From Candidatus Nomurabacteria bacterium (GTDB lineage: Bacteria > Patescibacteriota > Patescibacteriia > Magasanikbacterales > UBA922), in NCBI GenBank assembly GCA_020632445.1, contig JACKFN010000004.1, forward strand, positions 4,952 to 68,951: 64,000 bases of DNA, given 5' to 3'. Made by a program: the position numbers and the translations under genes. The stretch's first letter is position 1. Every line of letters starts with the position of its first letter. Below are positions 2,297 to 35,725 of the stretch, piece by piece. The notes under the pieces were generated by a model. The model saw only the letters and a program-made list of their open reading frames with translations, was not told the DNA's origin and did not search any database.

Positions 2297-2364
2297 AAAA
2301 ATGTTCGCTTTACACCTGGCAAGAAGTCCATTATAGTATAGCATAAAGTAACACTTCATCCTAT

Positions 2365-4678: not shown

Positions 4679-4770
4679 TTTGCGTTAGCTTTTTGGCTGT
4701 GTTATGCGTTTATTTTGGAAAGATTCTGGGATAAACGCATTTCGCAGCATGGAGCTGCAAGGAGGACGAG

Positions 4771-5853: not shown

Positions 5854-5952
5854 TCACCACGGTCCGATCCACCCACCAACATACCCCACCCCCGGCGCGT
5901 TCCCACCACGCGCCAACCCCAATTATAGTTTTCATCTTGGAAGTTATTGAGG

Positions 5953-5985: not shown

Positions 5986-6014
5986 TTGTATAATACATGC
6001 ACACATACAAAACT

Positions 6015-6479
6015 ATGACCATTGAATCAGCAAAAAATTACGAAAATCGCGTCGAGCGACAAGCAGAACACCGCGAATCCAAAGAAGGAGAAAAAGATCC
6101 CGAGCTTCAAGCTGCCGCGGCTATGGAGCGTGCCGAGCTTTTGGCAAAGGAAGTGAAAAATAGCAAAAAGCAGATGCAAAATATTGCGATCAATGTAGCC
6201 AATGTCAAAAATACTATTGCACAGCTGCGCGCCCAGCTCCAACTTGCTGCTAGTGACGATGATCCTCAATCAGTGCAGCAAGACAAGCAAGCACTCGAGG
6301 CGCTCAAAAAGAAAATTGCTCTTCATCAAGACGAGCTTATGAAAATGCGAGGAGATTTGATAAAACAACAAATGGAAGTGCTCAGTGAAGGAGGAACAGA
6401 CATGACACCTTCACAGCTCCAAGAACTGGCACAAAGACAGGTTGATGCGCTTATTGGCTCAGCGCATGATGATGAGTAA
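6015..6479 (+). CDS. hypothetical coiled-coil protein
   Basis: A TATAAT box sits just upstream. The product is a Glu/Lys/Gln-rich helical protein. Confidence 0.45.
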   Translation: MTIESAKNYENRVERQAEHRESKEGEKDPELQAAAAMERAELLAKEVKNSKKQMQNIAINVANVKNTIAQLRAQLQLAASDDDPQSVQQDKQALEALKKKIALHQDELMKMRGDLIKQQMEVLSEGGTDMTPSQLQELAQRQVDALIGSAHDDE

Positions 6480-6604
6480 AAATTGTGGTATACTAGGAAG
6501 GTAAAAATCGTTGCATTGCTACATGGTGAACATCTAGCAAATTTTTACGTATATACGTAGAATATAAAACCATTTGACCACATGGCAATGGAGCAATTAT
6601 TGGT

Positions 6605-8404
6605 ATGTACCCACGCCTGTCAAAATGTCACAAAGGAATTACTCTCATAGAAATTATTCTTGGAATAGGAATTTTTTTGCTTTTTGCCGTTGGAATTTTT
6701 AGTGGACTCAAGTTTATTTTCACAGTGGTGTATCAGTCTCGTGTTCGCATTTTGGAAACAGCTATTTTAAACGAACAAATTGAAATAGTACGGAACATGT
6801 CTTTTTATGATGTAGGTATCATCAATGGGTCTCCAGCTGGGAATTTGGAGGCGACAATAACGACCGTACGAAACGGAATATCATTTGATATCGTCCGTAC
6901 CGTGCGCAACATAGATGATGAGTATGATGGTACGATTGGTGGTGATCCAAACGATACATCACCGGCAGACTACAAGCTCGTAGAAATTTCTGTAAACTGT
7001 GTGAGCTGCCGGCAAAGAGTTCCACTGACTATGACGAGCTATATTGCCCCGAAGTATATAGAGGGAAACCCAGACAATGGTGCCTTGTTTATTCAAGTTT
7101 TTGATGCCCAGGCTCAGCCAGTAGCAGGTGCCACATTGGACATTGATGCCGTCATTGGCACCACAACCATAGATATCACGGACACGACCGATAACGAAGG
7201 ATACTTGCGAATAGTTGATCTGCCAGCTGGCGTCAACGAATATACTCTTGTCGCGACAAAGGCAGGATATACCACCGATCAAACAGAGTCATCAACAGAA
7301 GCATTGCCAAATCCCGTAAAACCATTTGCTTCCGTTGTAGCGCAAGATGTTACGGAAATAAGTTTGAGTATCGATAGGGTTTCTCAGATTAACCTCACGA
7401 CCAAAAATATTTTTTGTAACCCGCAAGGGTCTGTACAAGTGAACCGGCTTGGGACAAAGCTCAAAGGAACGGATCCGGAAACGCTCAAAGTCAACGACAA
7501 TATTGTTACCGATGGCAGTGGAGTATATGGCTATAGCAGTGTTATTTGGGATAGTTATGGTTTTCGAGCAACGGGGTATGATATTTTGGGAACGGTGCCT
7601 GCTATGCCACTTTCTGTCCTTCCCAATACGAGTAATGATATTGATTTGATTCTTGGTCCTGATAGCGATGATTCTTTGGTGGTGTATGTTTACGATAGTG
7701 TAACGAGCGAACCGATTTCTGATGCCACGGTAAGGCTCACAGATGGAGCTGCTTTTGATCAATCTTCACAAACGGGTGTGGGCTATATTCGACAAACAGA
7801 TTGGTCAGGAGGAAGTGGTCAAGAAAATATGCTCGACGATACGATGTATGATAGTGATAATGGTGGGGTGAATGTGATTTCGTCGGCTGGCAACATGATG
7901 CTTCAGTCTGTTGGGCCAGATTACGTGGCATCTGGCGAGCTTGTTTCTTCTGTATTTGATCTTGGTGTTGGTGTTAATTATCTGTATCTTGATTGGCAGC
8001 CAATAGCTCAGCCCGTAGCAACAGGAGAAAACTCACTGCGTATCCAGGTTGCGACAAGCGCCTCGTCGACACCGGCAACGTGGAATTTCTTGGGTCCTGA
8101 TGGTACAGATGCGACCTATTATGATCAGAATAATTTTGAAATTCACGCTGGACATGATAATGACCAATACTTTCGTTACAAAGTATACTTGTCTACCAAT
8201 ACGACGACGCAATCACCAACACTTTCTGACATTACCATGACATATACAACAGCATGTACTCCGCCAGGGCAGGTCTATTTTGGCAATCTCGTGAATGCCA
8301 CCGAGTATACGGCTACGGTATCAAAAGATGGTTACGAGACGTCAACACAAGCCGTAATTGTGAGTGGGGATATTGTCTTTGGTGTGTCACTCAATACTTT
8401 GTAA
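6605..8404 (+). CDS. type IV pilin-like protein (prepilin-type N-terminus, G|ITLIE with Glu at +5) with a large beta-rich C-terminal ectodomain
   Basis: KGITLIEIILGIGIFLLFAVGIF class-III signal / N-methylation motif, followed by about 550 aa of a Thr/Asp/Gly-rich extracellular region. Confidence 0.65.
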   Translation: MYPRLSKCHKGITLIEIILGIGIFLLFAVGIFSGLKFIFTVVYQSRVRILETAILNEQIEIVRNMSFYDVGIINGSPAGNLEATITTVRNGISFDIVRTVRNIDDEYDGTIGGDPNDTSPADYKLVEISVNCVSCRQRVPLTMTSYIAPKYIEGNPDNGALFIQVFDAQAQPVAGATLDIDAVIGTTTIDITDTTDNEGYLRIVDLPAGVNEYTLVATKAGYTTDQTESSTEALPNPVKPFASVVAQDVTEISLSIDRVSQINLTTKNIFCNPQGSVQVNRLGTKLKGTDPETLKVNDNIVTDGSGVYGYSSVIWDSYGFRATGYDILGTVPAMPLSVLPNTSNDIDLILGPDSDDSLVVYVYDSVTSEPISDATVRLTDGAAFDQSSQTGVGYIRQTDWSGGSGQENMLDDTMYDSDNGGVNVISSAGNMMLQSVGPDYVASGELVSSVFDLGVGVNYLYLDWQPIAQPVATGENSLRIQVATSASSTPATWNFLGPDGTDATYYDQNNFEIHAGHDNDQYFRYKVYLSTNTTTQSPTLSDITMTYTTACTPPGQVYFGNLVNATEYTATVSKDGYETSTQAVIVSGDIVFGVSLNTL

Positions 8405-8405
8405 T

Positions 8406-9008
8406 ATGGATAGGCGTGGAATAACACTTTTGGAAATAGTTATCTCAGTTGGCATCTTTGTTATGCTTACTTTTTCTATCGCTTATATACTTATTACTAC
8501 GCTCAAATCCAATGCCATTGTATGGGATCAGCTCCAAATTCAAAATGAAGGGAGAAAAGTTATTCAGCAAGTTGTAGATGAGGTCCGTCGGGCTGAAAGT
8601 TCCAGTATTGGAAGCTATGCCATTGCTACATCCTCAGCAAATGATTTGGTGTTTTATGCAAACATTGATGATGATGAGCTTCGGGAGAGAGTTCGATTTT
8701 GGCTTGATGGAACAGTGCTAAAAAGAAGTACGGTAAAGCCGTCTGGAGCTGACCTAGCGTACAACAACGCTAATGCATTTGTCGTTGAGCTTGCGCACAA
8801 TTTGACCAACGCTGCAGATGGTGAGGCGGTGTTTGAGTATTATGACGGTGACTATACTGGATCTGGTTCAGGATTAACCCAGCCGGTAAGTACGACCGCT
8901 GTCAGAGCGGTGAGAGTACAACTCAACTTTGAACGCGCCCCAGATAAGAGTCCGGAGCCATTGCGTGTGGAAGCATTTACGAGCATTCGAAATCTCAAAA
9001 CCAATTAA
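8406..9008 (+). CDS. type IV minor pilin / pseudopilin-like protein
   Basis: RRG|ITLLEIVISVGIFVM prepilin motif. The ATG at 8406 follows the upstream stop by 1 nt. Confidence 0.65.
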   Translation: MDRRGITLLEIVISVGIFVMLTFSIAYILITTLKSNAIVWDQLQIQNEGRKVIQQVVDEVRRAESSSIGSYAIATSSANDLVFYANIDDDELRERVRFWLDGTVLKRSTVKPSGADLAYNNANAFVVELAHNLTNAADGEAVFEYYDGDYTGSGSGLTQPVSTTAVRAVRVQLNFERAPDKSPEPLRVEAFTSIRNLKTN

Positions 9009-9013
9009 TTCAT

Positions 9014-10426
9014 ATGAAGTATTTCAAAAAACAATTTGCTCAGTTGGTGCATGATACCAAAGGAACCATGGTGGTTGTTATTTTGGTCTTTGGAGCAGTC
9101 GCAACCATGATCATTGCCAGTGGAATTTCAAGCTACGCGTACTTTGAGCATCGCGCCTCAAACAGAAAATACGATTCTGATTTAGCGCTGCATATTGCCG
9201 AAGCAGGTTTGAACTATTACAAGTGGCACTTGGCTCATAATCCAACGGACTACTATGACGGCAATGGCGGACCTTCAACGTCTACTGATCCGTATATCCA
9301 TGATTACTATGACAAAGACGGAAACGCTATCGGAAAGTTTGAGCTTTTGATAGAAGAGCCGGAGGTAGGGAGCACAGTTGTTGGTGTAGAATCCACCGGG
9401 TATACCAATTGGTCACCACACGTAAAGCGTACACTCTATGCACGGTATGGTTTTCCGAGTTTTGCTGATTATACGTTCTTGTCAAACGCCAACCTGTGGT
9501 TTAGTTTTTCCGCTATTGTTCATGGAGTAATCCATTCAAATGGAGGAATTCGTTTTGATGGTGAGACGGATTCTTGGGTAAAGAGTGCCAAAGAAACATA
9601 CAAGTACGAAAACCAGACACACAAGGGAGTTTGGGGTGGTGGTGGACCGAAGTCATTTTGGGTGTATCCTGTTCCACCTATTGATTTCGACTCAGTAAGT
9701 TCTGATTTGGCAGCTATCAGGGATGAAGCAGATGCTTCTGGTGTACATTTATTTTCTTCCGGTGCCGAAGGATATCACGTGGTGTTTTCTGGTGATACCT
9801 ACGACCTGTATCAGGTAGATACACGAGATTGCTATTATGGTGAGGGGCGTTGGAGGCACAAGTGGGGTGGTTGGTATTGGGACGGTGAAGTCTATTGTTT
9901 TGATATTGGAGATGAAACATTGATCAGTGAAGATAATGCTATCCCAGCAAGTGGCATGTTCTTTTCGGAAGATAACGTATGGGTGGAGGGGACCGTAGAT
10001 GGAAGAATTACCATTGGTGTGGGAAGGTTTCCTGTCCAAGAACCATATTTGAATATCATTATAAACAATAACTTAGTGTATAACGCCAAAAATGATGACG
10101 ACGTGGTTGGACTGATTGCACAGGGTGACATCATCGTCCCATACGAAACTCCAGATACCATGGAAATCAATGCCGCACTTCTCTCGCAGTATGGTTCAAA
10201 CTACCGTCCTTATTATGATGAAGATATGAAAGCAGAGCTTTCCATATTTGGTTCACAGATTTCGTACGAAGGTGGGGGATGGAAATACGTAAACGGATGG
10301 GGAAATGTCATTTCCGGATATGAGGATACGATCCACAGCTATGATGGAAATTTGAAGTACAATCCACCGCCAGGATTCCCGGTTGGAAATGTGCATGAGA
10401 TTCTCTCCTGGGAGGAAGTCGAGTAA
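9014..10426 (+). CDS. pilus-associated protein with an N-terminal TM anchor (PilX-like?)
   Basis: N-terminal hydrophobic helix GTMVVVILVFGAVATMIIASG with no Glu at +5. It is co-operonic with the two pilin genes. Confidence 0.4.
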   Translation: MKYFKKQFAQLVHDTKGTMVVVILVFGAVATMIIASGISSYAYFEHRASNRKYDSDLALHIAEAGLNYYKWHLAHNPTDYYDGNGGPSTSTDPYIHDYYDKDGNAIGKFELLIEEPEVGSTVVGVESTGYTNWSPHVKRTLYARYGFPSFADYTFLSNANLWFSFSAIVHGVIHSNGGIRFDGETDSWVKSAKETYKYENQTHKGVWGGGGPKSFWVYPVPPIDFDSVSSDLAAIRDEADASGVHLFSSGAEGYHVVFSGDTYDLYQVDTRDCYYGEGRWRHKWGGWYWDGEVYCFDIGDETLISEDNAIPASGMFFSEDNVWVEGTVDGRITIGVGRFPVQEPYLNIIINNNLVYNAKNDDDVVGLIAQGDIIVPYETPDTMEINAALLSQYGSNYRPYYDEDMKAELSIFGSQISYEGGGWKYVNGWGNVISGYEDTIHSYDGNLKYNPPPGFPVGNVHEILSWEEVE

Positions 10427-10506: not shown

Positions 10507-11379
10507 ATGCAAAGCGTTCGAAAAGGAATTATTACGGTTGCAGGATTGGGTACTCGATTTTTGCCAGCTACCAAGGCCATGCCAAAAGAAATGCTTCCGG
10601 TGCTTGATAAGCCGGTTTTGCAGTATATTGTAGAAGAAATGGTCGAAAGTGGTATCAAAGAGATTATTTTTGTCACCAGTTCTCAAAAACGTCCGATTGA
10701 AGATCATTTTGACCGTGATAGAGATTTTGAAATTTTTTTGAAAAGCAAGGGAAAACTCAATCGGCTTCAACCACTCATTGATTTATGCGAGAAAGTACGA
10801 TTTTTTTATACAAGGCAGTCAGAGCCGCTCGGAAATGGACATGCCATGATGTGTGCCCGTGAGTTTGTTGGTGACGAACCATTTGCTTTTTCGGACGGAG
10901 ATTCTATTATTGACGGAGAAACACCAGTGGTCAAGCAACTCGTTAAGGTGTTTAACAAAAAACAGGCATCAGTCATCGGGGTACAGCGTATCGAAGATAA
11001 GAAAGCTATGATGAAGTATGGGAATGTCTATGGAACACCGGTTCGGGGTGAGTCAAGAACGTATCGCGTGAGTGAGTTTATTGAAAAACCGGCAATGTCA
11101 AAGGTATCACCACATGGGCTGATTGTGGGAGGAATGCGATACGTTTTCACCAAAGACATTTGGGCACATTTGGAAAAACAACGCGAAGGAAGAGATGGTG
11201 AGATATGGCTTGCAGACGCGGCCAATTCACTTGCCAAGAAAAAACCTTTTTTTGCCTATGAATACGATGGAATCTATTTTGATACCGGGGATAAACTCGC
11301 ACTGTTGAAAACAACACTTCATTTTGCCATGAAAGATAATGAAATGGCAGATGAAATTAAAAAATTTGTTTGTGGGTAA
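10507..11379 (+). CDS. galU: UTP--glucose-1-phosphate uridylyltransferase
   Basis: GIITVAGLGTRFLPATKAMPKEMLPVLDKPVLQYIVEE nucleotidyltransferase motif. Confidence 0.85.
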   Translation: MQSVRKGIITVAGLGTRFLPATKAMPKEMLPVLDKPVLQYIVEEMVESGIKEIIFVTSSQKRPIEDHFDRDRDFEIFLKSKGKLNRLQPLIDLCEKVRFFYTRQSEPLGNGHAMMCAREFVGDEPFAFSDGDSIIDGETPVVKQLVKVFNKKQASVIGVQRIEDKKAMMKYGNVYGTPVRGESRTYRVSEFIEKPAMSKVSPHGLIVGGMRYVFTKDIWAHLEKQREGRDGEIWLADAANSLAKKKPFFAYEYDGIYFDTGDKLALLKTTLHFAMKDNEMADEIKKFVCG

Positions 11380-12613
11380 AAGATTTTTACATTTTTTCGT
11401 ATTAAGTCTATTTATTGTAGTAGGTCTTTCGATGTATTTAGAAAATGCGTACGCCGCAGAGAAGCCAAGACTCATTGAGTGTGGTGTGCCAGGGGAGACG
11501 ACTCAATACACAGTCTGGTGGATGGGGGGAAAATATGAGAAAAGAGTTTGTCTCGATGTAAGGAAAGGTAAAACATCTTTAACGTATTGGGAGCTTTTTC
11601 GATCGGGGATATTTAGTGATCATGGTCCTTGGGAAGATGTGGATGCTTTCGTAAGTTACAGATGTGATGGGGCATTTTGGCGGAATCCTGGACTTCCTGA
11701 ATGGAGAAAGTTAAAGGATATTACTTTTCCACTAGAAGAAAAAATTGAAGTGGATGGAAAGAAGTGTGAATGGAGAGTTTTACTTGATACGGAAGATAGA
11801 CCAACATATATTTATTATGAGGGTGTGCAGTTGCCTTCTGAGGCAGAAGTTGCTGCTGCCGCGGGTTGTGAATGTAAAATTGAATATGCTGGGATTGGAG
11901 GAAATCCGGATCGCGGAGCTGTGTTTTTTGGTGGAGTTGCTAAGCTTCCATATGTTGATCATAACTCGATTCCCAAAAATCAGCTCTGTGGAGAAAGTAC
12001 CACCGTTACTATTGGTATAGGTCGATCAGGTCCTGCGAATGAATTGTTGAATTTAAGAAAGATTGCAGAGGCACAAGCGCTTGGTCGATCAAATTGTTGG
12101 CCAATGTATTTGAAAGAAAGTGCCGTTGCATCAAGGACTCTTCAGATCGATAATGAAGAACAGTGTAAGGCACTAGAGGGTGGACTTCAAAATTTTGCGG
12201 TCCCTGAATTTTCTATGAGACTCAATGGAATAGGAGAAGTGACAGTTCGAGGTGCATATCGTATTTTAATTAAAAGCTGTGAGATTGTTGGAAAACTTGA
12301 GAGTGCCCCTTCGGATAGTCAGCCAGTCGTTTCAGAAGTTCCTTTTTCAGTGCCAAGCCCATCTTCTCTGAACCGATTGGGGGATACCAATTTTCAGGGC
12401 CTTATTGGGAGGGCAATCAAGTTCGTTGTTCAGATGCTCGGATCCATTGCTTTTGTGATGTTTGTGTATGGGGGAATTTTGTTTATGTTTTCTGGTGGAA
12501 ATAGTAGCAAAGAATTGAAGGCCATTAAGACACTTGCTTATGGAGGTATAGGTGTACTGATTATACTTTCAAGTTATATTCTTGTTCAGTTTTTATTTAG
12601 TGCATTTTCATGA
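11339..12613 (+). CDS. T4SS-pilin-like (TrbC/VirB2-type) protein with a large N-terminal ectodomain
   Basis: Signal peptide. The C-terminal core LIGRAIKFVVQMLGSIAFVMFVYGGILFMFSGGNSSKELKAIKTLAYGGIGVLIILSSYILVQF is shared with 11 paralogs (helix - short polar loop - helix). Confidence 0.55.
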   Translation: MKWQMKLKNLFVGKRFLHFFVLSLFIVVGLSMYLENAYAAEKPRLIECGVPGETTQYTVWWMGGKYEKRVCLDVRKGKTSLTYWELFRSGIFSDHGPWEDVDAFVSYRCDGAFWRNPGLPEWRKLKDITFPLEEKIEVDGKKCEWRVLLDTEDRPTYIYYEGVQLPSEAEVAAAAGCECKIEYAGIGGNPDRGAVFFGGVAKLPYVDHNSIPKNQLCGESTTVTIGIGRSGPANELLNLRKIAEAQALGRSNCWPMYLKESAVASRTLQIDNEEQCKALEGGLQNFAVPEFSMRLNGIGEVTVRGAYRILIKSCEIVGKLESAPSDSQPVVSEVPFSVPSPSSLNRLGDTNFQGLIGRAIKFVVQMLGSIAFVMFVYGGILFMFSGGNSSKELKAIKTLAYGGIGVLIILSSYILVQFLFSAFS

Positions 12614-13431
12614 TGAAGAGATGTGGGCTTTGGTTTGTGTGTAGTTTACTCGGTGCATTTTTCGTGACTCCTCCGTTTGCCGTATCAAAGAATCTTTGTG
12701 AATGTTTTGTGGTTGTTGAGGGTGTTCAAGATCGATATGGAAACCCCGTCGGTAACCAGATTTGTAGATCAGAAGGACAGACCAAAGGAGTTTCTCAATT
12801 CGTCATAGAGCTTGGGTCTCTTTCAGGGGATACCGTACAGGTAAACTTAGAAGAAAAAATTACTCCATTGGTGAAAAATCTTTATGATGCAACCAATTAT
12901 GGGTCAAGAGCTTGTTTTCCAATTGAAGAGTCAAAGTATCGTCAGCATATAAACAAGTACATGATTGACGTAAGTAATGTGGATGTCTCTGAAGAATCTT
13001 GTGGGGATCAGTTGCATGGTCTAAGTGTAGCAGTACCGGTAAAAAGCACATCAAACGTAAATTACGATGGGTATTATGTGGCAAACCTTTCTTGTAAATA
13101 TGTTGTTAGAGAAGAAGATGGAAGTGAAGCAGTTATAATCCAAGAGGTTGGAGGGGGTTATAGGGAATTTCGTTTTCAGGACCAACTTTCCAAAGGCGTT
13201 GCCGGTTCTTTCCAGATGCTCATAGGAAAAGCGATTAAATTTGTAGTCGGAATGCTTGGATCTGTTGCGTTTATTATGTTTGTATATGGCGGAATTCTTT
13301 ATATGTCTTCGAGAGGAAATACTGACACGCAGAAAAAGGCGCTCCTTACATTGGCCTATGCAGGGATAGGAGTCGTAATTATTCTCTCAAGCTACATACT
13401 GGTGAAGTTTTTGTTTAGTGCATTTTCATAA
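12610..13431 (+). CDS. T4SS-pilin-like protein with an N-terminal ectodomain
   Basis: The C-terminal 90 aa are near-identical to the preceding gene (…FVYGGILYMSSRGNTDTQKKALLTLAYAGIGVVIILSSYILVKFLFSAFS). Confidence 0.55.
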   Translation: MMKRCGLWFVCSLLGAFFVTPPFAVSKNLCECFVVVEGVQDRYGNPVGNQICRSEGQTKGVSQFVIELGSLSGDTVQVNLEEKITPLVKNLYDATNYGSRACFPIEESKYRQHINKYMIDVSNVDVSEESCGDQLHGLSVAVPVKSTSNVNYDGYYVANLSCKYVVREEDGSEAVIIQEVGGGYREFRFQDQLSKGVAGSFQMLIGKAIKFVVGMLGSVAFIMFVYGGILYMSSRGNTDTQKKALLTLAYAGIGVVIILSSYILVKFLFSAFS

Positions 13432-14843
13432 TGCATGGTATAATAGGAGCAATTAAAAAACTTATGAAAAGGAAAATCATTGCCATATTTTCGCTTCTTG
13501 CTACCGTTCTTTTGACGGGCGGTCTTGGATGTAAGGGGTTGTCAGCCGACGAACAGGCGGCCATTCAGCCAATATCACTCACATACTGGACAGTATATGG
13601 TGATATTGATGAACTTCGGGCGCTTGCTGCAGAGTACAGCCAGCTGCGGACCTATGTCACTGTCAATATTCGTCAAATTCGGTATGATGAACTCGAAGAA
13701 AGATTGCTTACGGCGTTGGCTGATGATGTTCCACCGGATATTATCTCTATTCCAGCTGAATCTATCCCGCAGTATCTCAAGTGGCTCGAACCAATGCCAA
13801 GGCAGGTGAGTGTTTCCAACGTATACACCAAAGGGACCTATGCCAAGGAAACCGTCGTTGAGCGAGTGGTTCAGCCGATGCCAACCCTTCGTGAAATTGA
13901 AAGTACTTTTGTGCAGGCAGTCGTTGATGATGCGGTCATAGGTAATCAAGTATATGGTTTGCCACTTTCACTTGATACGCTGGCACTTTACTACAACAAA
14001 AATTTACTTGATCTTTCTGGTATTCCCACACCGCCACGAACATGGGATGACTTCCAAAAGGCTGTTGAACAGATTGTGCGTTATGATGTGAATGGAAATG
14101 TTACACAGGTTGGTGTTGGACTTGGGACAGGAAGCAATGTAAACAATGCTGCAGATATCCTTGCACTTTTGATGCTCCAAAATGGAGTAGAGCCAATTAA
14201 GGGAAACCGTGTGGCTTTTCACGCTGGAATGGAAAAAAATGTTTCACAAAACCATAAGACTTTTGAGTCGCTTCGTTTTTACACACAGTTTTCTGACAAA
14301 ACCAAAAAGGCATATACTTGGAACGAGAAACAAGAGCAAGCGCTTGATGCCTTCGTGCGTGGAAAGTCAGCATTTTACATAGGATATGCAAGGGATTTTG
14401 CGCAGATGTCACGCAGAGCGCAGGCGCTCAACCTAGAGGTTATTCCACTTCCTCAACTGAATCCAAATAGACCAACGAATGTAACGAGCTATTGGGTGGA
14501 AAGTGTTGTAGAAAAAAGTAACAAAGGAAATCATGCATGGGATTTTGTGAGATTTATGACCACGGAAAGAAACATTCGGAAGTACGTCGAGTCTACACGA
14601 CTTCCATCTCCAGTTAGGACACATGTTACTCTCTTTCAAGACGACGAAGTGCTCGGTCCATTTGCTCAGCAGGTACTCTTTGCCAAGACATGGTATTCTG
14701 GTCGTGACGCAGACAGAGCCAAGCGAGCATTTGCTGACTTGATAGAAGCATATCGCCTGCCTGGAGCAACAGATAAAAAGAAGCTTGAAAATGATGTAAA
14801 CGCTGTGAACTACGCGGCGCAGATCATCCAGCAGACATTGTAG
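13431..14843 (+). CDS. ABC transporter extracellular solute-binding lipoprotein (family 1, sugar-type)
   Basis: Lipobox LTGGLGC and a bipartite SBP-like sequence of about 450 aa. Confidence 0.65.
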   Translation: MHGIIGAIKKLMKRKIIAIFSLLATVLLTGGLGCKGLSADEQAAIQPISLTYWTVYGDIDELRALAAEYSQLRTYVTVNIRQIRYDELEERLLTALADDVPPDIISIPAESIPQYLKWLEPMPRQVSVSNVYTKGTYAKETVVERVVQPMPTLREIESTFVQAVVDDAVIGNQVYGLPLSLDTLALYYNKNLLDLSGIPTPPRTWDDFQKAVEQIVRYDVNGNVTQVGVGLGTGSNVNNAADILALLMLQNGVEPIKGNRVAFHAGMEKNVSQNHKTFESLRFYTQFSDKTKKAYTWNEKQEQALDAFVRGKSAFYIGYARDFAQMSRRAQALNLEVIPLPQLNPNRPTNVTSYWVESVVEKSNKGNHAWDFVRFMTTERNIRKYVESTRLPSPVRTHVTLFQDDEVLGPFAQQVLFAKTWYSGRDADRAKRAFADLIEAYRLPGATDKKKLENDVNAVNYAAQIIQQTL

Positions 14844-14861
14844 TTTCTTTGGATTATTACT

Positions 14862-15704
14862 ATGAAAAGATTCACGACCAAAAAAGTACTCTCAGCGGTG
14901 TTTCTGTTGCTCTTTTTTGTGATACCAACTGTAGCGGATGCTGCTGGACAATGTTTTTATTATAGTGTAAAGATTGACTACAGCAACGAAGGAAAGGCTA
15001 CCAAACAGTGTCGATCTGACATGACACAAGCAGAAAAGGATCGGTGTGAGCCGTTTACAGGCTGTGGATGTATTTTGGTGCTTGATGAGTCTCATGCGAG
15101 GTTACCTGGTGCCACTGCAAGGTGTATGGAAAACAAGGAAGGTGGATTGCAAGTGTGTGATAGTACGGGTGATATATCGACATGTAAAGATTATTTGAAT
15201 GCAGGAAGCGGTGCGCAGATAAATTCGATTGATGACTGTGTATCTATTTGTTCGACTCCGTTTGCTAATGGTTATGCGGCAGTAAAATGCACCTACTTTC
15301 GTCAGGGATTCAATTCGTGTGAAGACGTACTTGCCAAGTACCGTGCAGATTTGAACAAAGAAGAAACTTCCCCTGTTCCTGAAAGTCTCGAGCGAGGACA
15401 ACTGCGACTTCCAGACTGCGCTTACAGTAAAACCGGGTGCCGAAACATCAATGCACTTTTGGAACTGGTGATCAACATCGGCGACTGGATATTTGGATTT
15501 ATCGGTGGTGTGGCCCTTTTGGTGTTTGTCTATGGTGGGTTTGTCGTGGTAACATCATTTGGGAATGCTGAAAAAGTCAAAAAAGGATATAGTATTCTCG
15601 GAGCGGCGCTTATTGGTATGGCCATAGCGGTAAGTGCCTATTTACTCGTGGATTTCTTGCTTGATGCTCTTACGGTTAAGGAAGAGTTTAGAAGTGTAAG
15701 GTAA
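14862..15704 (+). CDS. T4SS-pilin-like protein with a Cys-rich N-terminal ectodomain
   Basis: 14 Cys in the ectodomain; the C-terminus carries the FVYGGFVVVTSFGNAEKVKKG...AYLLVDF core. Confidence 0.55.
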   Translation: MKRFTTKKVLSAVFLLLFFVIPTVADAAGQCFYYSVKIDYSNEGKATKQCRSDMTQAEKDRCEPFTGCGCILVLDESHARLPGATARCMENKEGGLQVCDSTGDISTCKDYLNAGSGAQINSIDDCVSICSTPFANGYAAVKCTYFRQGFNSCEDVLAKYRADLNKEETSPVPESLERGQLRLPDCAYSKTGCRNINALLELVINIGDWIFGFIGGVALLVFVYGGFVVVTSFGNAEKVKKGYSILGAALIGMAIAVSAYLLVDFLLDALTVKEEFRSVR

Positions 15705-15705
15705 T

Positions 15706-16437
15706 ATGAAGAAACAGATTTTGTATTTTGTGTATACTTTAGGAATTATCTGTGCAGTATTTTTTCCTATGGTCACATACGCCGAAATTGTTAAGTGTAC
15801 CTGTCGTGTAAATATTGTCCAGCCTGGTGATCTGTGTGTTGTAGAACATTCAGAGGTGTTTACCTTTGACACTGAGAATGGTGCAGTAGTTCCAATTGAT
15901 TTGCCATTAGACGGTTTTTTTGCAGATGCGGCAGATACACAAGCATGTATGAATGTCGCTCCTCCTTTTGATACCATATCTGGTGGGCAAACATTGCAAC
16001 TTGCTGTGGATAGCTGTAATGTAGATCAGGAGGAAGAAAAAGATGGGAATAGTTATACACTAAACTGCTTTTTCGAAGGACAAGATCCTGCCGCCGCGCC
16101 AGGCGCAGCAGCAGGCGCGCCAGGATCTGGCGCTGCTCCAGCCTCCGGTGGTGATGTCGGAAAAGAAGGAGAACTCCGCAAATTATCCCTTCCAAACCCT
16201 CTCCAAGAGGTAAATATCAACCGACTCATTGGGCGTATTATTGGACAGGCACTTGGCCTCCTTGGATCTATTTCACTTGCCGTGTTTGTGTATGGAGGAT
16301 TTATGTTTTTAACTTCTGCTGGTAACGATGATAAGGTCAAAAAAGGTACCAATGCCATGCTCTATGCCGCAGTCGGGGTATTCCTTGTTTTGGCAAGTTA
16401 TGTTATACTAAGGGAAGTATTTACTAAGGTATTTTAG
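15706..16437 (+). CDS. T4SS-pilin-like protein with a Cys-containing ectodomain and an Ala/Pro/Gly linker
   Basis: C-terminal core FVYGGFMFLTSAGNDDKVKKGTNAMLYAAVGVFLVLASY. Confidence 0.55.
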   Translation: MKKQILYFVYTLGIICAVFFPMVTYAEIVKCTCRVNIVQPGDLCVVEHSEVFTFDTENGAVVPIDLPLDGFFADAADTQACMNVAPPFDTISGGQTLQLAVDSCNVDQEEEKDGNSYTLNCFFEGQDPAAAPGAAAGAPGSGAAPASGGDVGKEGELRKLSLPNPLQEVNINRLIGRIIGQALGLLGSISLAVFVYGGFMFLTSAGNDDKVKKGTNAMLYAAVGVFLVLASYVILREVFTKVF

Positions 16438-16527
16438 GCCTGATTTTAGGTAAAGACATGGGATTCTTGACAAATTCGAGGCACCATGTCACTATATACC
16501 GTTATCTATCTAAACTTATGAAAGGGG

Positions 16528-16980
16528 GTGAGAAACATGCTTAGCAAATTGAGTAAGAAGGCAATGCTCGGATTCGGGGCTTTCCTCGTACTTGGAACAG
16601 CACTTGTTCCTGCTAGCGCAGGAGCTGCTGAAGTTGACGATGACGTTAACACTTTCTTTGGAGTATCATATGCACAAAAGTCAGGTCTTGGTAACCGTGA
16701 TGTGCGTGATACTATTGCCTCTATCATTCGTGTCGCTCTTTCACTTCTCGGTATTATTGCGCTCCTTATTATTCTCGCAGGTGGTTTCCAATGGATGACC
16801 GCAGGTGGTAATGATGATAAGGTTCAGGAAGCGAGAAAGCGTATGATTCAAGGTGTGATCGGTCTAGCGATCATCATGAGTGCATATGCAATCTCTATCT
16901 TTGTTATCGAACAGCTGTCAGAAGCAACCCAATCAGGTCAAGCTGATGCTGCAGATCTTGGTGCCGGTGACGAAGAATAA
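16528..16980 (+). CDS. T4SS-pilin-like protein (minimal form)
   Basis: Signal peptide plus LLGIIALLIILAGGFQWMTAGGNDDKVQEARKRMIQGVIGLAIIMSAYAI. Confidence 0.6.
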   Translation: MRNMLSKLSKKAMLGFGAFLVLGTALVPASAGAAEVDDDVNTFFGVSYAQKSGLGNRDVRDTIASIIRVALSLLGIIALLIILAGGFQWMTAGGNDDKVQEARKRMIQGVIGLAIIMSAYAISIFVIEQLSEATQSGQADAADLGAGDEE

Positions 16981-17034
16981 TATTTACCGGAGAGACGGGC
17001 GCACACTGGTGCGCCTCACTTTCTTGTAAACCCT

Positions 17035-17442
17035 ATGAAAAAACTCTCCCCATATATTTCTTTTGGGATCTTACTTCTTGTTTTGGCGGTTTTGTTTGCC
17101 CCTGATTTTGCGTTTGCTGGTGGACCAAATCTTGGTCTTGAGTTTGGGAGCAATACCGGACTGGGAAAATCAGATGTTCGTATTACAATAGCGCGAATTA
17201 TCAAGGTCGTGCTGAGCGTTCTGGGAATACTCACCCTTGTGCTCATCTTGTTTGCCGGATTCAAATGGATGACCGCTGGAGGAGATGAAAGCAATGTTGA
17301 CAGTGCAAAAATGATCATGAAAAATGCCGTCATTGGGCTGGCGATTGTGATGGTTTCCTACGCGCTTACAGACTTTATTCTGACGAATCTGTACAAGCAA
17401 ACCACTGGGTACGACTATCACGAGGAGGTATTTATACCGTAA
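17035..17442 (+). CDS. T4SS-pilin-like protein (minimal form)
   Basis: VLGILTLVLILFAGFKWMTAGGDESNVDSAKMIMKNAVIGLAIVMVSYAL. Confidence 0.6.
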   Translation: MKKLSPYISFGILLLVLAVLFAPDFAFAGGPNLGLEFGSNTGLGKSDVRITIARIIKVVLSVLGILTLVLILFAGFKWMTAGGDESNVDSAKMIMKNAVIGLAIVMVSYALTDFILTNLYKQTTGYDYHEEVFIP

Positions 17443-17538
17443 AAATAGATAAATTGAAAAATTGTTAAATGGTTACATTGAGGATCAATAAATAGCTATG
17501 CTATCATTTGTAATGGAATAGTGTAATCCTTTAGCAAT

Positions 17539-18486
17539 TTGTCAATTTCGCAATTTTCTTCTATGAACACAAAATTCAAAATACTTTTTCTTTCATTTAC
17601 GCTTACCATAGGAGTTTTGCTTGGTGCTGGTTATGCACTTGCCAACGATTATGGGCTTGGTGCTACCGCTGGAGCTGCCGGACTTACCAATTCAGCCGGT
17701 GGAAATGATGTGCCAACTATTCTTGGTAATGTTATTGGAACGGCACTATCAGTAGTATCTATTGTCTTTTTTATCCTCATGATTTATGGAGGATTCTTGT
17801 GGATGACTGCACACGGAAAAAGTGATCAGACAAGTAAAGCACTTGATACCATTATTGCTGCGGTGATAGGTATTATCATTGTACTTGGAGCGTATGCGCT
17901 TACCCAATTTGTGTTTGATAACATTGCTGGAGGTGGAGGCGCTGGCGGAGGTGTGGCACCTTCTGCGGCTGATCTTAAACCGAATGATACATCTTGCAAT
18001 ATTGATGCAGACTGTCAATCTGGTGCATGTGTTCTCTTTGCTGGAGCACCGACTAAGCTTTGTTCTGCGCCTGGTGCAATCGGAGAAGAATGCCAGGCAA
18101 ATAACCATTGTGTTACTGGAAATTGTCAGGGTGGCCAATGTGCAGATGGGGGGGCAGCGGCAGGCGCAGGCGCAGGCGCTGATGACCTAGCCGCACAAAG
18201 AAATCAGCTCAATGCAGAGCTTCAGGGAATGCTACAGCTTGTCGATGGTTTTGCTACTTGTATAGATGATGGTGATAACGTCGGCTGCGACGATGCTGAA
18301 GATGACTTCGGTGAACAGATAACTGAGCTTGGAACACTCATTGGCACGGCACAAGCGACGGATGATATTGCTCAAAAGGAGGCATCAAAGATACAGGTGC
18401 AAACTAAAATAGATGCAATGGCAGGGATGATGAGGAATGTGTGTGATCAAGATGTACTTAATTGTGCAGCGCGAGCAGGTAGGTAA
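17539..18486 (+). CDS. T4SS-pilin-like protein with a C-terminal Cys-rich extension
   Basis: Pilin core (IYGGFLWMTAHGKSDQ...GAYALTQF) followed by a Gly linker and CNIDADCQSGAC...CQANNHCVTGNCQGGQC. Confidence 0.55.
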   Translation: MSISQFSSMNTKFKILFLSFTLTIGVLLGAGYALANDYGLGATAGAAGLTNSAGGNDVPTILGNVIGTALSVVSIVFFILMIYGGFLWMTAHGKSDQTSKALDTIIAAVIGIIIVLGAYALTQFVFDNIAGGGGAGGGVAPSAADLKPNDTSCNIDADCQSGACVLFAGAPTKLCSAPGAIGEECQANNHCVTGNCQGGQCADGGAAAGAGAGADDLAAQRNQLNAELQGMLQLVDGFATCIDDGDNVGCDDAEDDFGEQITELGTLIGTAQATDDIAQKEASKIQVQTKIDAMAGMMRNVCDQDVLNCAARAGR

Positions 18487-18496
18487 AAAAGATTGT

Positions 18497-19273
18497 ATGC
18501 AGTTTCGTGTGAAAACAAAAACGTTTCTATTTTTAGTAGGGTGTTTAGCTCTTTCCATATTATTGTCCGTGCCGAGCTATGCCAAAAAATCCTTCGCCGA
18601 TCAGGGCGCAGCACTTGATACTGCCGTAAGCCGAACCGGAGTGAGTGGCGAAAACCTCACCAGTCTTCCTGCGTTTATTGGCAATGGGATACGAGCCGCC
18701 CTATCTCTTGTGGCGGTTATTTTCTTCATACTCATGTTTTATGGGGGAATGCGTTGGTTTACCTCTCGCGGAGAAGAAGATGCGGTCAAGCACGGGCGGG
18801 ATACCATATCTGCCGCACTCATTGGGCTTTTACTTGTCGTTGGAGCATACGCAGTTACGAATCTCGTACAAGATAGAATTATTAGCGGCAATCAGTCAGT
18901 TGGTGCTGGAGCAGGAGGGGATAGCGGAGGAGAGCCAGGAGCCCCGGGATGCTGTCTTGATGCTATCCAAGATGCAGGAGCGAACATTGGATTTTCTGGT
19001 GTAGACTTTGACCTCGGATTTTCTTTTGTATACGCAGCATATATTCGTGATAGACAGGGCTGTAGCACACGCCAAGCAGATGATGCTCTTGCTGGGGCTG
19101 AGGGGTCGTACTGGTTTTGGTTCCCGGAAACCGGTGGCGATATGAACAAGTGTAATGAAATTTTTATAACTTGCTTTGATGATGCTGTAGTTGGGCAAGA
19201 TAAAATTGCTGACAAAAATGCTTGCGCTCAAAATGTTATTCGGCAAAATGGCTGGCAAACTCCTACGAATTAG
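18497..19273 (+). CDS. T4SS-pilin-like protein with a C-terminal Cys-containing extension
   Basis: Core FYGGMRWFTSRGEEDAVKHGRDTISAALIGLLLVVGAYAV. The start was trimmed to MQFRV. Confidence 0.5.
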   Translation: MQFRVKTKTFLFLVGCLALSILLSVPSYAKKSFADQGAALDTAVSRTGVSGENLTSLPAFIGNGIRAALSLVAVIFFILMFYGGMRWFTSRGEEDAVKHGRDTISAALIGLLLVVGAYAVTNLVQDRIISGNQSVGAGAGGDSGGEPGAPGCCLDAIQDAGANIGFSGVDFDLGFSFVYAAYIRDRQGCSTRQADDALAGAEGSYWFWFPETGGDMNKCNEIFITCFDDAVVGQDKIADKNACAQNVIRQNGWQTPTN

Positions 19274-19285
19274 TAGAGCAAAATT

Positions 19286-19684
19286 TTGTATGCTATACTT
19301 GATCATATGAATATGAAAAAATTTGCAAAAAAAATAACTTCTTTTTTTATCGTGGCATTGCTTTTTGCCCCTACGATGGCCGGAGCGGTTGGTCTACAAA
19401 AGTCGGGTACGCTGCTTGGTCAAACGGCTTCTAAGACAGGAGTTGATACCAGTAAGCAGGTCGAAGATGTTGTTGGGGCCGGAATTCGAGCCGGGCTTAC
19501 CTTAGTGGGGCTAATTTTCCTTGTACTTATGGTCTATGCCGGGTATCTTTGGATGACAGCGCGTGGTGAAGAGTCACAGGTAGACAAAGCAAAAAAAATC
19601 GTCAGTACCTCTATCATTGGTCTTGTGCTGGTGGTAGGTGCGTATGCTATCACCTTCCTTATTACTTCTCGACTTGGGAGGTAA
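19286..19684 (+). CDS. T4SS-pilin-like protein (minimal form)
   Basis: VYAGYLWMTARGEESQVDKAKKIVSTSIIGLVLVVGAYAI. Confidence 0.6.
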   Translation: MYAILDHMNMKKFAKKITSFFIVALLFAPTMAGAVGLQKSGTLLGQTASKTGVDTSKQVEDVVGAGIRAGLTLVGLIFLVLMVYAGYLWMTARGEESQVDKAKKIVSTSIIGLVLVVGAYAITFLITSRLGR

Positions 19685-19722
19685 AGAAGACGGATAAATA
19701 GGACGTTTTAAATTGTTATACT

Positions 19723-20325
19723 ATGAAAAAATACCTCCTCATATTAGCTTTTGCTATAGGTGTGGCGCTTCCGTTTTCAGCTTCTGCTTTTGTTGATCTT
19801 GGAAAAGATCGCCTAACTGGTGGTGGAAGATCTGCAGGATATTCCGTAGATACTACCACAGAAACCACTTTTGCAGAGATTGTCGGTGAGGTTATCGCTG
19901 TCGCCCTTTCGCTCGTGGGTGCGATTTTTTTGGTTATTACGTTTTATGCAGGATTTCTGTGGATGACGGCACATGGAGACGAACAACAAGTCGACAAGTC
20001 AAAAAACATGATTCGTCAGTCTATGATTGGACTTGCGGTAGTACTGGGTGCTTACAGCATTACGAATTTTGTGGTTCCACGGCTCGTGGCAAAGACCACA
20101 GGTGGTGCTGCTTCTCAGGGCGGGGAACCTCTCAAACCGGGCGATACTCTTTGTTGTATAAAGACAGATGAAGGAACTGGAAACGAAGTATCACGACGCA
20201 TTGTGCAGGAAGTTTCGCAGTGTTATTCTAGTGGTTTTTTTGGAATTGGATCAGGTTGCTCTGATAATAATGTCGATGGTCATGAATGTCAGGCGATGGC
20301 AATGCCAGCAGAACAGTGTAAGTAA
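19723..20325 (+). CDS. T4SS-pilin-like protein with a short Cys-containing C-terminal extension
   Basis: FYAGFLWMTAHGDEQQVDKSKNMIRQSMIGLAVVLGAYSI. Confidence 0.55.
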   Translation: MKKYLLILAFAIGVALPFSASAFVDLGKDRLTGGGRSAGYSVDTTTETTFAEIVGEVIAVALSLVGAIFLVITFYAGFLWMTAHGDEQQVDKSKNMIRQSMIGLAVVLGAYSITNFVVPRLVAKTTGGAASQGGEPLKPGDTLCCIKTDEGTGNEVSRRIVQEVSQCYSSGFFGIGSGCSDNNVDGHECQAMAMPAEQCK

Positions 20326-20326
20326 T

Positions 20327-20938
20327 ATGAAAAAACTGAAGTACATTTTCATGGTTGCCATCTTTGGGATAAGCCTAGCACCGAGCGTGGCTTTTGCTGG
20401 AGTTGCCTCTGATCTCAACGCGCAACTTGGTGCAGGAGCCAAACGTGCTGAGTACGGAGAGGCGCAAGATCCAAGGAATTTGGTAGAAGAAGTGATTAAA
20501 GTCATCCTCGAGCTTACCGGGACTATATTTTTGGTGTTAATTATCATTGGTGGTTTTCATTTTTTTACCTCAGCGGGTGATGAAGAAAAAGCAACAAAGG
20601 GAAAGGCATATATTCGAAATTCCACCATTGGTCTTGCGGTGGTTTTGGCATCGTATAGCATTACGCTTTTTGTCGTTTCGCAGACACAGCAGGCGGTGAC
20701 TCCCGGGGGACCTGGTTCTGGTCCGCGAGATGTCGTTCCTCCAGGTACGGCTCCTGGCGAGATCGTTATGTGTTGTGATGTTGAATACCGTGGAATTCTT
20801 GTCGATGACTCAGAGACTTTTATTGTCCAGCAAGAAAGCGATTGTTACAGCCGATGTGATCGTCCAGGAGAAAATGGAGCCCCAACCACCTGTGTGGTTT
20901 CTCGTGTTACCAAAAATGAATGCGTAAATAGACACTAG
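20327..20938 (+). CDS. T4SS-pilin-like protein with a Cys-containing C-terminal extension
   Basis: The start was trimmed to MKKLKYIF right after the upstream stop. Core IIGGFHFFTSAGDEEKATKGKAYIRNSTIGLAVVLASYSI. Confidence 0.55.
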   Translation: MKKLKYIFMVAIFGISLAPSVAFAGVASDLNAQLGAGAKRAEYGEAQDPRNLVEEVIKVILELTGTIFLVLIIIGGFHFFTSAGDEEKATKGKAYIRNSTIGLAVVLASYSITLFVVSQTQQAVTPGGPGSGPRDVVPPGTAPGEIVMCCDVEYRGILVDDSETFIVQQESDCYSRCDRPGENGAPTTCVVSRVTKNECVNRH

Positions 20939-20945
20939 GGCCTTT

Positions 20946-21446
20946 ATGAAAGCACAAAAAAAACATAAATTCTACTTTGTACTTACACTTGTGATAATGG
21001 TAATTTTTTTGCTTCCCGAGGCTTCACATGCACTGAGCAGAGCCGTTGGCCAAACCAGTGCTGTTGCCGGCTCTCAAGGGGCAAATTTTGGTGAAGCTGC
21101 AGACCCACGCGTTGTCGTGGCAAAGGTTATCAAGAATATACTTGGGATCATGGGAATTGCTATGGTTGGTTTTTATGTCTATGCAGGCGTTCTTTGGACA
21201 TCTGCTGGCGGTAGCCAAGACCAGGTTGATAAAGCAAAAAAAATCATACGGTACAATGTTATCGGAACCATCATTATCTTTATGGCGTATAGCATTACGT
21301 ATTTTATATCTACTTCATTTTCTCGTGCGACAGTGGATAAACCTGAGGGGCAGTGGCAGATTGATATTGGCGAGGACCAAGATCGATTTGATAGGCCAAA
21401 TGTTTACCGGACACCAAGCAACGAAGCCTACTATAACACGAACTAA
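20946..21446 (+). CDS. T4SS-pilin-like protein
   Basis: VYAGVLWTSAGGSQDQVDKAKKIIRYNVIGTIIIFMAYSI. Confidence 0.55.
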   Translation: MKAQKKHKFYFVLTLVIMVIFLLPEASHALSRAVGQTSAVAGSQGANFGEAADPRVVVAKVIKNILGIMGIAMVGFYVYAGVLWTSAGGSQDQVDKAKKIIRYNVIGTIIIFMAYSITYFISTSFSRATVDKPEGQWQIDIGEDQDRFDRPNVYRTPSNEAYYNTN

Positions 21447-21478
21447 AAAACACCACGGTCCATTCGTGGTGTTTTTTT
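21445..21478. terminator. bidirectional rho-independent terminator
   Basis: aaaaaacaccacggtccattcgtggtgttttttt, between convergent genes. Confidence 0.6.
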
Positions 21479-34253: not shown

Positions 34254-34256
34254 AAT

Positions 34257-34712: not shown

Positions 34713-34785
34713 ATGAGCGTATTTTATGGGGGAAGTATACCACCATGGGTGAGTTGTTTCAAACTGGGGAAAAGGCTGTAATGTA

Positions 34786-34814: not shown

Positions 34815-34848
34815 GAGAAGTCCGAAAACTGCCAACGAAGGAGGTATC

Positions 34849-35718: not shown

Positions 35719-35725
35719 GGTCGTC

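Follow-up and report, generated by a model that had tools for sequence, protein, structure and literature searches.

Architecture of the pilin array

The window analysed here is a stretch of 64,000 nucleotides from Candidatus Nomurabacteria bacterium (contig JACKFN010000004.1), and its positions 11339-21446, on the forward strand, were found by Pfam scan to hold twelve tandem paralogs of the pilin family PF18895 ('T4SS_pilin'; T4SS, type IV secretion system). Twelve pilin paralogs had already been proposed from the letters and open reading frames (ORFs) of the stretch alone (hereafter the sequence-only reading). The array is broken by a single non-pilin gene, encoding a solute-binding lipoprotein (solute-binding protein, SBP; 13431-14843). 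Every paralog has a Sec-type signal peptide and a VirB2-like hairpin of two helices, the latter referred to below as the core. Eight of the twelve are extended by a further module, four between the signal peptide and the hairpin (modules labelled D) and four after the hairpin (labelled C), and the remaining four are short and contain no cysteine. The genes and associated features were as follows.

11339..12613 (+), pilin paralog 1 (g11339), 424 aa: PF18895 at aa 350-419, E 7e-7; signal peptide aa 1-39, D1a ~40-170 (4 Cys), D1b ~171-320 (6 Cys, starts GCECK), Pro/Ser linker ~321-347, core 348-424
12610..13431 (+), pilin paralog 2 (g12610), 273 aa: PF18895 at aa 200-268, E 5e-8; signal peptide aa 1-24, D2 25-195 (6 Cys, starts LCECF; homologous to D1b), core 197-273
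13431..14843 (+), solute-binding lipoprotein gene, 470 aa: SBP_bac_1/8, Pfam E 3e-27; lipobox-like ...GLGC
14862..15704 (+), pilin paralog 3 (g14862), 280 aa: PF18895 at aa 203-266, E 2.5e-6; signal peptide aa 1-27, D3 28-194 (14 Cys), core 195-271
15706..16437 (+), pilin paralog 4 (g15706), 243 aa: PF18895 at aa 171-234, E 8e-7; signal peptide aa 1-26, D4 27-128 (6 Cys, starts KCTCR), Ala/Pro/Gly linker 129-166, core 167-243
16528..16980 (+), pilin paralog 5, 150 aa, short, no Cys: highest PF18895 score among the twelve (37.7 bits), plus a weak TrbC match
16997..17016 (+), GC-rich stem-loop, terminator- or attenuator-like, directly 3' of paralog 5: terminator scan, -25.3 kcal/mol, z -5.25
17035..17442 (+), pilin paralog 6, 135 aa, short, no Cys: PF18895 E 1.3e-8; core 52% identical to paralog 5
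17563..18486 (+), pilin paralog 7 (g17539), 307 aa from ATG 17563 (the ORF opens at TTG 17539): PF18895 E 2e-5, 25.0 bits; core aa 46-122, Gly-rich linker, C7 ~141-307 (12 Cys) with CxxxxxCxxGxC knot-like repeats and a helical stretch
18497..19273 (+), pilin paralog 8, likely start 18497, 258 aa: PF18895 E 6e-5, 23.5 bits; core aa 53-129, C8 ~148-258 (6 Cys, starts GCCLD)
19307..19684 (+), pilin paralog 9, 125 aa, short, no Cys: PF18895 E 5e-7; orthologs of 125 and 123 aa
19723..20325 (+), pilin paralog 10 (g19723), 200 aa: PF18895 at aa 49-117, E 1.3e-6; core aa 46-122, C10 ~139-200 (6 Cys, starts LCCIK; Cys count conserved)
20327..20938 (+), pilin paralog 11, 203 aa from ATG 20327 (the longest ORF opens at 20168): PF18895 E 5e-6; core aa 45-121, C11 ~143-203 (6 Cys, starts MCCDV)
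20946..21446 (+), pilin paralog 12, 166 aa, short, no Cys, with a 44-aa polar tail: PF18895 E 3.6e-6
21445-21477, terminator-like hairpin closing the array: terminator scan

PF18895 scores were 26.8-37.7 bits in ten of the twelve paralogs, above the curated cut-off of 26.6, and slightly under it in g17539 and in the 18497 gene; counted from the TTG, the g17539 match covers aa 58-125 of 315. Weak TrbC/VirB2 matches were given by several paralogs, every TrbC (PF04956) match being below cut-off. In all twelve a signal-like hydrophobic N-terminus ending in an AxA-type site was followed, by hydropathy, by two hydrophobic helices and a short charged loop, for example GGNxxKVKK in the aligned cores. 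N_methyl gave no match in any of the twelve, which do not show the class III signal and prepilin-peptidase site of type IV pilins. Matches of the core profile to designed 'Pizza' repeat proteins in the PDB were set aside as spurious.

Pairwise identity between the twelve cores was 18-71%. Clustering by the unweighted pair group method with arithmetic mean gave three clades, one holding the N-extended paralogs, one the four C-extended paralogs joined by the short g19286, and one the remaining three short paralogs, a grouping that matches gene order along the array. Typical VirB2/TrbC-type pilins have precursors of ~90-135 aa, and the eight extended paralogs exceed this at 200-424 aa; the best 120 PF18895 relatives from a core-profile search were all short, consensus-like pilins of 92-135 aa, a list that indicates only what is typical and not the length distribution of the family. 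Patescibacteria VirB2 arrays are defined by at least two divergent genes in tandem, or with one non-pilin gene between them, in a Patescibacteria genome; here, in a member of that group (Candidatus Nomurabacteria), there are 12 genes and one SBP gene. A promoter scan was uninformative (31 sites versus 25 expected), and an Rfam scan of the window gave two tRNAs only.

The sequence-only reading had assigned a C-terminal core and an N-terminal module to the genes at 11339, 12610, 14862 and 15706, in agreement with the Pfam coordinates, and its placement of the core near the N-terminus of g17539 and the 18497 gene was borne out as well. The 14 cysteines of g14862, the AAPGAAAGAPGSGAAP linker of g15706 and the CNIDADCQSGAC...CQGGQC stretch of g17539 were all present. 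Its count of six extended paralogs was too low, the actual number being eight: C-terminal modules of ~60-80 aa, with 6 Cys in each, are also present in g19723 and in the gene at 20327-20938.

Long N-terminal regions can arise as over-extended ORF starts or fused gene calls, and for g11339 the NCBI call (MCB9798644.1, 393 aa) is 31 aa shorter, starting at Met32 and so without the signal peptide (window 11339-11434). The start-picking heuristic applied to the related loci described below may also over-call N-extensions, and one 'extended' ORF among those loci has two pilin stretches. The 424-aa form of g11339 is the one called in Logan assemblies, independent gene calls (Logan, ENA, JGI) give the same lengths, and the C-terminal extensions do not depend on the choice of start. 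Because the N-terminal regions, with their Cys pattern, and the signal peptides at the far N-terminus are conserved in two other species, an artefact of this kind was regarded as excluded for practical purposes.

Cysteine content, topology and predicted folds of the modules

Cysteines were confined almost wholly to the extensions. The numbers per mature module, in array order, were 4, 6, 6, 14, 6, 12, 6, 6 and 6, all of them even, and six cysteines were present in every compared sequence of D1b, D2, D4, C8, C10 and C11. Because the counts are even and conserved, the modules are probably stapled by disulfides. From the two-helix hairpin that remains after signal-peptide cleavage we infer that both termini lie outside and that N- and C-terminal modules alike are extracytoplasmic and exposed, which agrees with the even, conserved cysteine counts. 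Grafts at either terminus of such a hairpin are compatible with display.

Structure prediction with AlphaFold2 (AF2) gave folded ectodomains of moderate confidence, neither disordered nor cytoplasmic, in keeping with the sequence-only reading. The model of mature g11339 (6-sequence alignment; mean predicted local distance difference test score, pLDDT, 65.8) comprised a beta-rich D1a (70-88), a mixed D1b (45-83), a disordered Pro/Ser linker and two long core helices at model residues 316-349 and 354-387. For the mature product of the 18497 gene an alpha/beta C8 (pLDDT 63-88) and a low-confidence core were obtained. A conserved two-helix anchor bearing variable, presumably extracytoplasmic modules, as first proposed from the sequence, is a real architecture.

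Conservation and divergence in two other species

When the g12610 ectodomain and full-length g11339 were used as queries, word-indexed searches gave matches in the same species only. An exhaustive phmmer search with the concatenated ectodomains (1.84 billion representatives) gave 10 further proteins, of which the seven scanned with Pfam all had a pilin core and the other three were short fragments. Their contigs held two complete syntenic arrays from two other species, designated L003 (the closer species) and L005. The common layout is GalU, genes 1-2, the SBP gene, genes 3-12 and, on the opposite strand, monogalactosyldiacylglycerol (MGDG) synthase, with protein sizes matching by position. 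All 12 pilin genes, including gene 1 with its N-terminal signal peptide, have one-to-one positional orthologs in the three species.

Identity to L003 was 58-94% for the pilin cores, 34-63% for the ectodomains and 72-84% for neighbouring housekeeping proteins; the modules diverge about twice as fast as the cores and the housekeeping proteins. Paralog 3 is 94% identical to its L003 ortholog in the core and 63% in the ectodomain (D3 having 14, 14 and 12 Cys across the three species), and paralog 4 is 90% and 34% identical, respectively. Against the two other species the core of paralog 5 shows 90% and 80% identity, and paralog 7 reaches 88% and 84% in the core and 34% and 28% in the C-terminal region. 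Homologs of C8 (P0017, P0018, P0020, P0021) all have 6 Cys, as does C11 in four sequences (paralog 11 homologs P0016 and P0023). BLAST similarity between paralogs 10 and 11 extends across the module (36.8% over 204 aa). As judged from these comparisons, the array goes back to old tandem duplications and has been inherited gene for gene.

Gain, loss and duplication of modules between species, for which the sequence-only reading had suggested looking, were seen. D4 is duplicated in tandem in the L005 gene-4 ortholog (333 aa), and the number of Cys-knot-like repeats in gene 7 differs between species. The L003 gene-2 ortholog (P0019, L003:8647-10176) combines an N-module and core with a gained C-terminal VanY (M15 peptidase; Pfam E 1e-9), its metal-binding motifs SxHxxGxAxD and WHFE intact. 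In a Magasanikbacteria locus (L080:1148-2569) an SLT lytic transglycosylase stands C-terminal to two CxC modules and a core, which amounts to a fusion of VirB2 with VirB1. No hydrolase module was found in the window's own paralogs.

Enzymatic modules of this kind in relatives, together with the flexible, protease-accessible linkers between module and core, would suit a pro-protein whose core acts as a carrier for export or targeting and whose modules, once cut free at the linker, become soluble effectors (wall hydrolases or toxins, for instance). VirB2/TrbC-type pilins do undergo extra proteolytic processing. The modules here, however, already have a Sec signal peptide or stand behind a Sec-inserted hairpin, so that a carrier would be unnecessary; no conserved cleavage motif was identified; and modules are found on either side of the core, as would be expected of display more than of one uniform processing scheme. 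Release from a carrier was accordingly considered improbable.

Pilin-core arrays in related lineages

GTDB species representatives were scanned with the conserved gene-7 core alignment, giving 79 loci (L009-L087), mostly from Magasanikbacteria, Paceibacteria, Falkowbacteria and Uhrbacteria. A core hidden Markov model (HMM) detected 619 pilin-core ORFs in 78 of the 79, up to 14 per locus. Among 584 ORFs in the 78 loci that were complete and had a signal-like start, 60 were N-extended (at least 120 aa before the core, a number that the start-picking heuristic could inflate) and 75 C-extended (at least 60 aa after the core); ~22% of the 584 were extended. Cysteine made up 6.4% of the N-extensions, 8.6% of the C-extensions and 0.12% of the cores, and the counts in extensions were mostly even. 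Pfam scanning of 127 extended proteins gave the pilin domain and a few weak single matches to membrane families, the only real module being the SLT domain in L080. Many arrays run in the order N-extended, short, then C-extended mixed with short.

The nearest core in a different genome belonged to the same architecture class in 61% of N-extended and 51% of C-extended cases, against 12-14% expected, and individual modules were recognisable by iterated HMMs in only 3-15 loci (C8 in 15). Because class tracks the nearest core yet modules are recognised in so few loci, the architecture is, on present alignments, mostly inherited with the core, the module sequences diverging or being replaced quickly, with gains and losses.

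CxC occurs within the first 50 aa in 24 of the 60 N-extensions, usually close behind the signal peptide, with a beta-strand-like stretch following it (GCKCTITLKG, SVCECILTIKG); N-extended pilins with such a start were seen in L010, L011, L014, L015, L020, L021, L028, L043, L051, L080 and others. Several other N-extensions start with CC, like the C-terminal modules of the window (CCLDA, CCIKT, CCDVE). The counts of CxC and CC were not above chance given the Cys content. These starts may represent a shared stapling motif or a highly divergent common domain. A single superfamily uniting the CxC N-modules with the CC C-terminal modules was suspected, but profile comparison gave it no support (hhalign P 0.005-0.05 at best).

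Many of the metagenome-assembled genomes with such arrays bear the title 'uncultured Gammaproteobacteria bacterium' (in one case 'Bdellovibrionales' and in another 'Lysobacteraceae'), which, given their gene content, looks like mislabelled taxonomy.

Origin of the 11339/12610 pair

The genes at 11339 and 12610 had been described as sharing near-identical 3' ends behind different 5' domains, and from this a recombination-driven swap of ectodomains onto a constant anchor, giving a modular adhesin or effector display, had been proposed; in the form weighed here, cassettes are swapped onto a constant 3' anchor by ongoing recombination or gene conversion and the display varies rapidly. The 3' ends proved to be 74% identical in protein over 74 aa and ~75% identical in DNA, and in the cores the proportion of synonymous differences (pS) was 0.78, that is, saturated, with a non-synonymous distance (dN) of 0.20 (Nei-Gojobori counting). 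No direct repeat longer than 65 nt was found within the array, and the 65-nt repeats were themselves 74-77% identical. With synonymous sites saturated and no long repeats, the DNA comparison suggested for these ends leaves no trace of recent conversion.

The difference between the 5' domains held in part: D1a (~130 aa), found only in gene-1 orthologs, is extra in g11339, and the domains next to the core are related. D1b (g11339 ~171-320) and D2 (g12610 25-195) aligned with an hhalign probability of 95% (E 2.6e-8, 120 columns) when three-species profiles were used, and BLAST of the L003 g11339 ortholog (P0014) against g12610 covered the shared CxC motif through the core (34.6% over 260 aa). Direct Smith-Waterman comparison was not significant (z < 1.5), and two-sequence profiles were marginal (P 0.005). 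Since the proximal ectodomains are homologous as well as the cores, the pair is, by these alignments, an old whole-gene tandem duplicate with an extra N-terminal domain in gene 1, and not a product of cassette swapping.

Over evolutionary time the architecture does change, as in the gain of VanY, the duplication of D4, the repeat number of C7 and the accretion of D1a; the nearest core in another genome was of a different architecture class in 39-49% of cases, and most modules were unrecognisable beyond a few genera. Such turnover would be expected from cassette exchange. Against it stand the saturated synonymous sites and the short, diverged repeats of the array, the homology of the proximal ectodomains and the twelve positional orthologs in three species. 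Near-identical strains differed by 0-5 substitutions over 5-17 kb, plus one gap in one pair, with no mosaics and with too few differences to read selection signals, and the array held no silent cassettes or invertase-type switch. The swapping model was therefore held to be very improbable, and for this genome it is largely refuted.

Genomic neighbourhood

The SBP gene separates pilin genes 2 and 3, and neither a permease nor an ATPase partner was seen close to it. It occupies the same position in L003 and L005 and was detected by tblastn in 51 of the 79 related loci, and it looks like a conserved component of the cluster, not a passenger.

The hairpin 3' of gene 5 recurs at the same position in L003 (~13764-13782, z -5.0) and in L005 (~16110-16137, z -4.4), in the latter with a different sequence. 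Its conservation suggests a putative terminator, attenuator or mRNA stabiliser that would mark gene 5 as a highly expressed subunit. Gene 5 is a candidate major subunit because it combines the best family score with a strong hairpin after it in three species, such a hairpin being typical of major-subunit genes with high expression.

Type IV pilus genes stand just upstream of the array (window 566-2398 on the minus strand and 5997-10426 on the plus strand). The set comprises a PilB-type ATPase (T2SSE and MshEN), followed by a 160-aa ORF, a 599-aa protein with CarboxypepD_reg, a 214-aa protein (8364-9008) with a weak, sub-threshold match to the N-terminal methylation motif, and a 470-aa orphan. 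The block of p599, p214, p470 and GalU recurs upstream of related arrays. Envelope-related neighbours are GalU and MGDG synthase here, and penicillin-binding proteins (PBPs) and DUF2079 proteins in related loci.

Islands with a GC content of 0.50-0.55, over a background of ~0.43, were seen at ~4700-5900, 34000-38000, 52000-54000 and 56000-58000. They contain overlapping ORFs on both strands and orphans with no Pfam match (4771-5853, lipoprotein-like with LVGCGQD; 35850-37109; 51913-53151). The first island looks like an insertion, because gene order in L003 and L005 runs from S18 directly to the 155-aa gene with no counterpart.

Proposed role of the array

We favour, with a probability of roughly 0.55, the interpretation that the locus is a conserved, ordered array of twelve structurally differentiated VirB2-like pilins with an SBP, in which the short paralogs form a filament or anchor and the extended ones serve as a host-contact or wall-acting display. 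After Sec export and signal-peptide cleavage, the hairpin would sit in the membrane with a cytoplasmic loop and two external termini. The short, Cys-free paralogs, which have the most conserved cores, would make up the filament shaft or a membrane platform as bulk subunits, gene 5 probably being abundant. The extended paralogs would join as minor subunits via the same core, exposing their modules on flexible Ala/Pro/Gly/Ser linkers; if the cores polymerise, modules at either end would decorate the surface or the tip of the filament. The modules may bind structures on the host-cell surface or act on the cell wall in an epibiotic lifestyle.

Several points weigh against this interpretation. PF18895 proteins bear the pilin label by homology and are only presumed to polymerise, and a search of the core profile against PDB sequences found no solved VirB2 or TraA. 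The AF2 models were built from 5-6 sequences and reach a mean pLDDT of 57-66 (cores ~50-65); the modules of the window matched no Pfam family, and Foldseek against PDB and BFVD gave no match (best E 0.08-1.7). No thiol-oxidising enzyme was found in the window, and the cysteines could bind metal instead; the fast evolution of the modules could reflect relaxed constraint in place of host interaction. VirB4, VirB6 and VirD4 were found neither in any sizeable ORF of the 64-kb window nor among the recurrent families of 53 large ORFs (560-1000 aa) within 10 kb of the 79 related arrays. The label 'T4SS-type pilus' is putative, being taken only from the Pfam homology of the core. Modules of 100-300 aa on a 77-aa core might be hard to accommodate in a helically packed filament unless present at low stoichiometry or confined to its tip.

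The absence of T4SS genes near the array, here and in relatives, and modules awkward to pack both suit a reading in which the hairpin is merely a membrane anchor. The array would then encode twelve non-polymerising surface proteins of a monoderm cell, with linkers that cross the wall and modules either exposed at the surface or working inside the wall of the cell itself. The VanY and SLT modules of relatives could serve turnover of that wall, and the envelope-related neighbours point the same way. The four module-free paralogs, on the other hand, are kept as one-to-one orthologs with the most conserved cores, and an anchor without cargo makes little sense; the cores show invariant G/Y positions and a conserved loop, a conservation well beyond what an unspecialised transmembrane anchor would require; and pilin arrays are essential in Southlakia epibionticum, there within a T4SS cluster (PMC10633639). 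Anchoring alone, the main rival to the favoured interpretation, was judged unlikely on balance.

A more specific form of the differentiated-pilin interpretation can be envisaged, and we hold it to be doubtful. It would make the array a heteropolymeric surface organelle, not recognised before, of about 12 differentiated VirB2-fold subunits, deeply conserved in candidate phyla radiation bacteria of the Paceibacteria/Magasanikbacteria type and genetically unlinked to any T4SS, whose disulfide-stapled head modules, sometimes peptidoglycan hydrolases, recognise and breach the host envelope while the SBP captures released material. The corresponding cluster would consist of type IV pilus-like genes, GalU, 1-4 N-extended pilins with the embedded SBP, short pilins and then C-extended pilins.

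Comparison with known systems

Much of bacterial diversity belongs to the Patescibacteria, which live attached to the cells of hosts. VirB2-like arrays are already known from them: 441 arrays of 2-11 genes were reported from 383 assemblies, with identities of 25% on average and 54% at most, and a possible help in adapting to hosts was suggested for them from the parallel with Bartonella and Anaplasma (Quinonero-Coronel et al. 2025, PMC12102498). In that survey a pilin gene lay near virB4 in 1135 of the 1948 assemblies having both, so that many pilin genes lie apart from virB4. In S. epibionticum, the only one of these species that is genetically tractable, the pilin array is essential (Wang et al. 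2023, PMC10633639; review PMC12857230).

The current view is of small, interchangeable, divergent pilins, perhaps serving antigenic variation or host range. The evidence assembled here points instead to differentiated, positionally conserved subunits; about one-fifth of the members in related lineages bear fast-evolving, Cys-rich modules, and a few relatives carry wall hydrolases in the module position. The architecture is solid and general, and for function and assembly mechanism we infer only what is set out above. Within the epibiotic apparatus, the extended paralogs are candidates for the parts that recognise the host and breach walls. The analysis also offers a model of major and minor subunits, several possible new domain families and, in the SBP, a conserved partner, and the extended paralogs could serve as host-specificity markers in metagenomes.

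Compared with the published Patescibacteria arrays of 2-11 small, structurally conserved pilins at no more than 54% identity (PMC12102498), the present one has 12 genes (relatives up to 14), one pair 71-74% identical, Cys-rich modules on eight of the twelve, genes ordered by architecture, an embedded SBP and no T4SS genes within 64 kb. Full-text literature searches, and PMC12102498, PMC10633639 and PMC12857230 themselves, gave no description of grafted modules, Cys-rich ectodomains, hydrolase fusions, architectural order or an embedded SBP; relative to the descriptions found, the extension of such pilins by Cys-rich modules is new.

Canonical VirB2/TrbC/TraA pilins (F, T and RP4 pili) likewise have a signal peptide and a two-helix hairpin with a short polar loop, and the F pilus has both of their termini on its outer side, as display would require. 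They are, however, small, have no extra domains and are encoded inside the T4SS operons of diderms, and the likeness is at the Pfam level only. Tandem amplified and diversified VirB2/VirB5 subunit genes linked to host-surface interaction are also known from the Bartonella Trw system and the Anaplasma T4SS (cited in PMC12102498), whose paralogs are short variants with no grafted domains, in diderm pathogens with a complete T4SS locus.

VirB1-type peptidoglycan hydrolases, with SLT and sometimes extra wall-acting domains, have an activity like that of the SLT and VanY modules, but VirB1 is a separate protein, whereas in relatives of this array the hydrolase is covalently attached to a VirB2-like core. 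A parallel in design is offered by the modular type IV pilins PilB and PilC of Streptococcus sanguinis, in which a polymerisable pilin module is joined to an adhesin or lectin module in a minor subunit, adding functions to an otherwise simple filament (PMC8179133, PMC9934059). Fold and machinery are unrelated there (class III signal peptide, prepilin peptidase, single N-terminal helix), so that the relation is one of analogy and not of membership.

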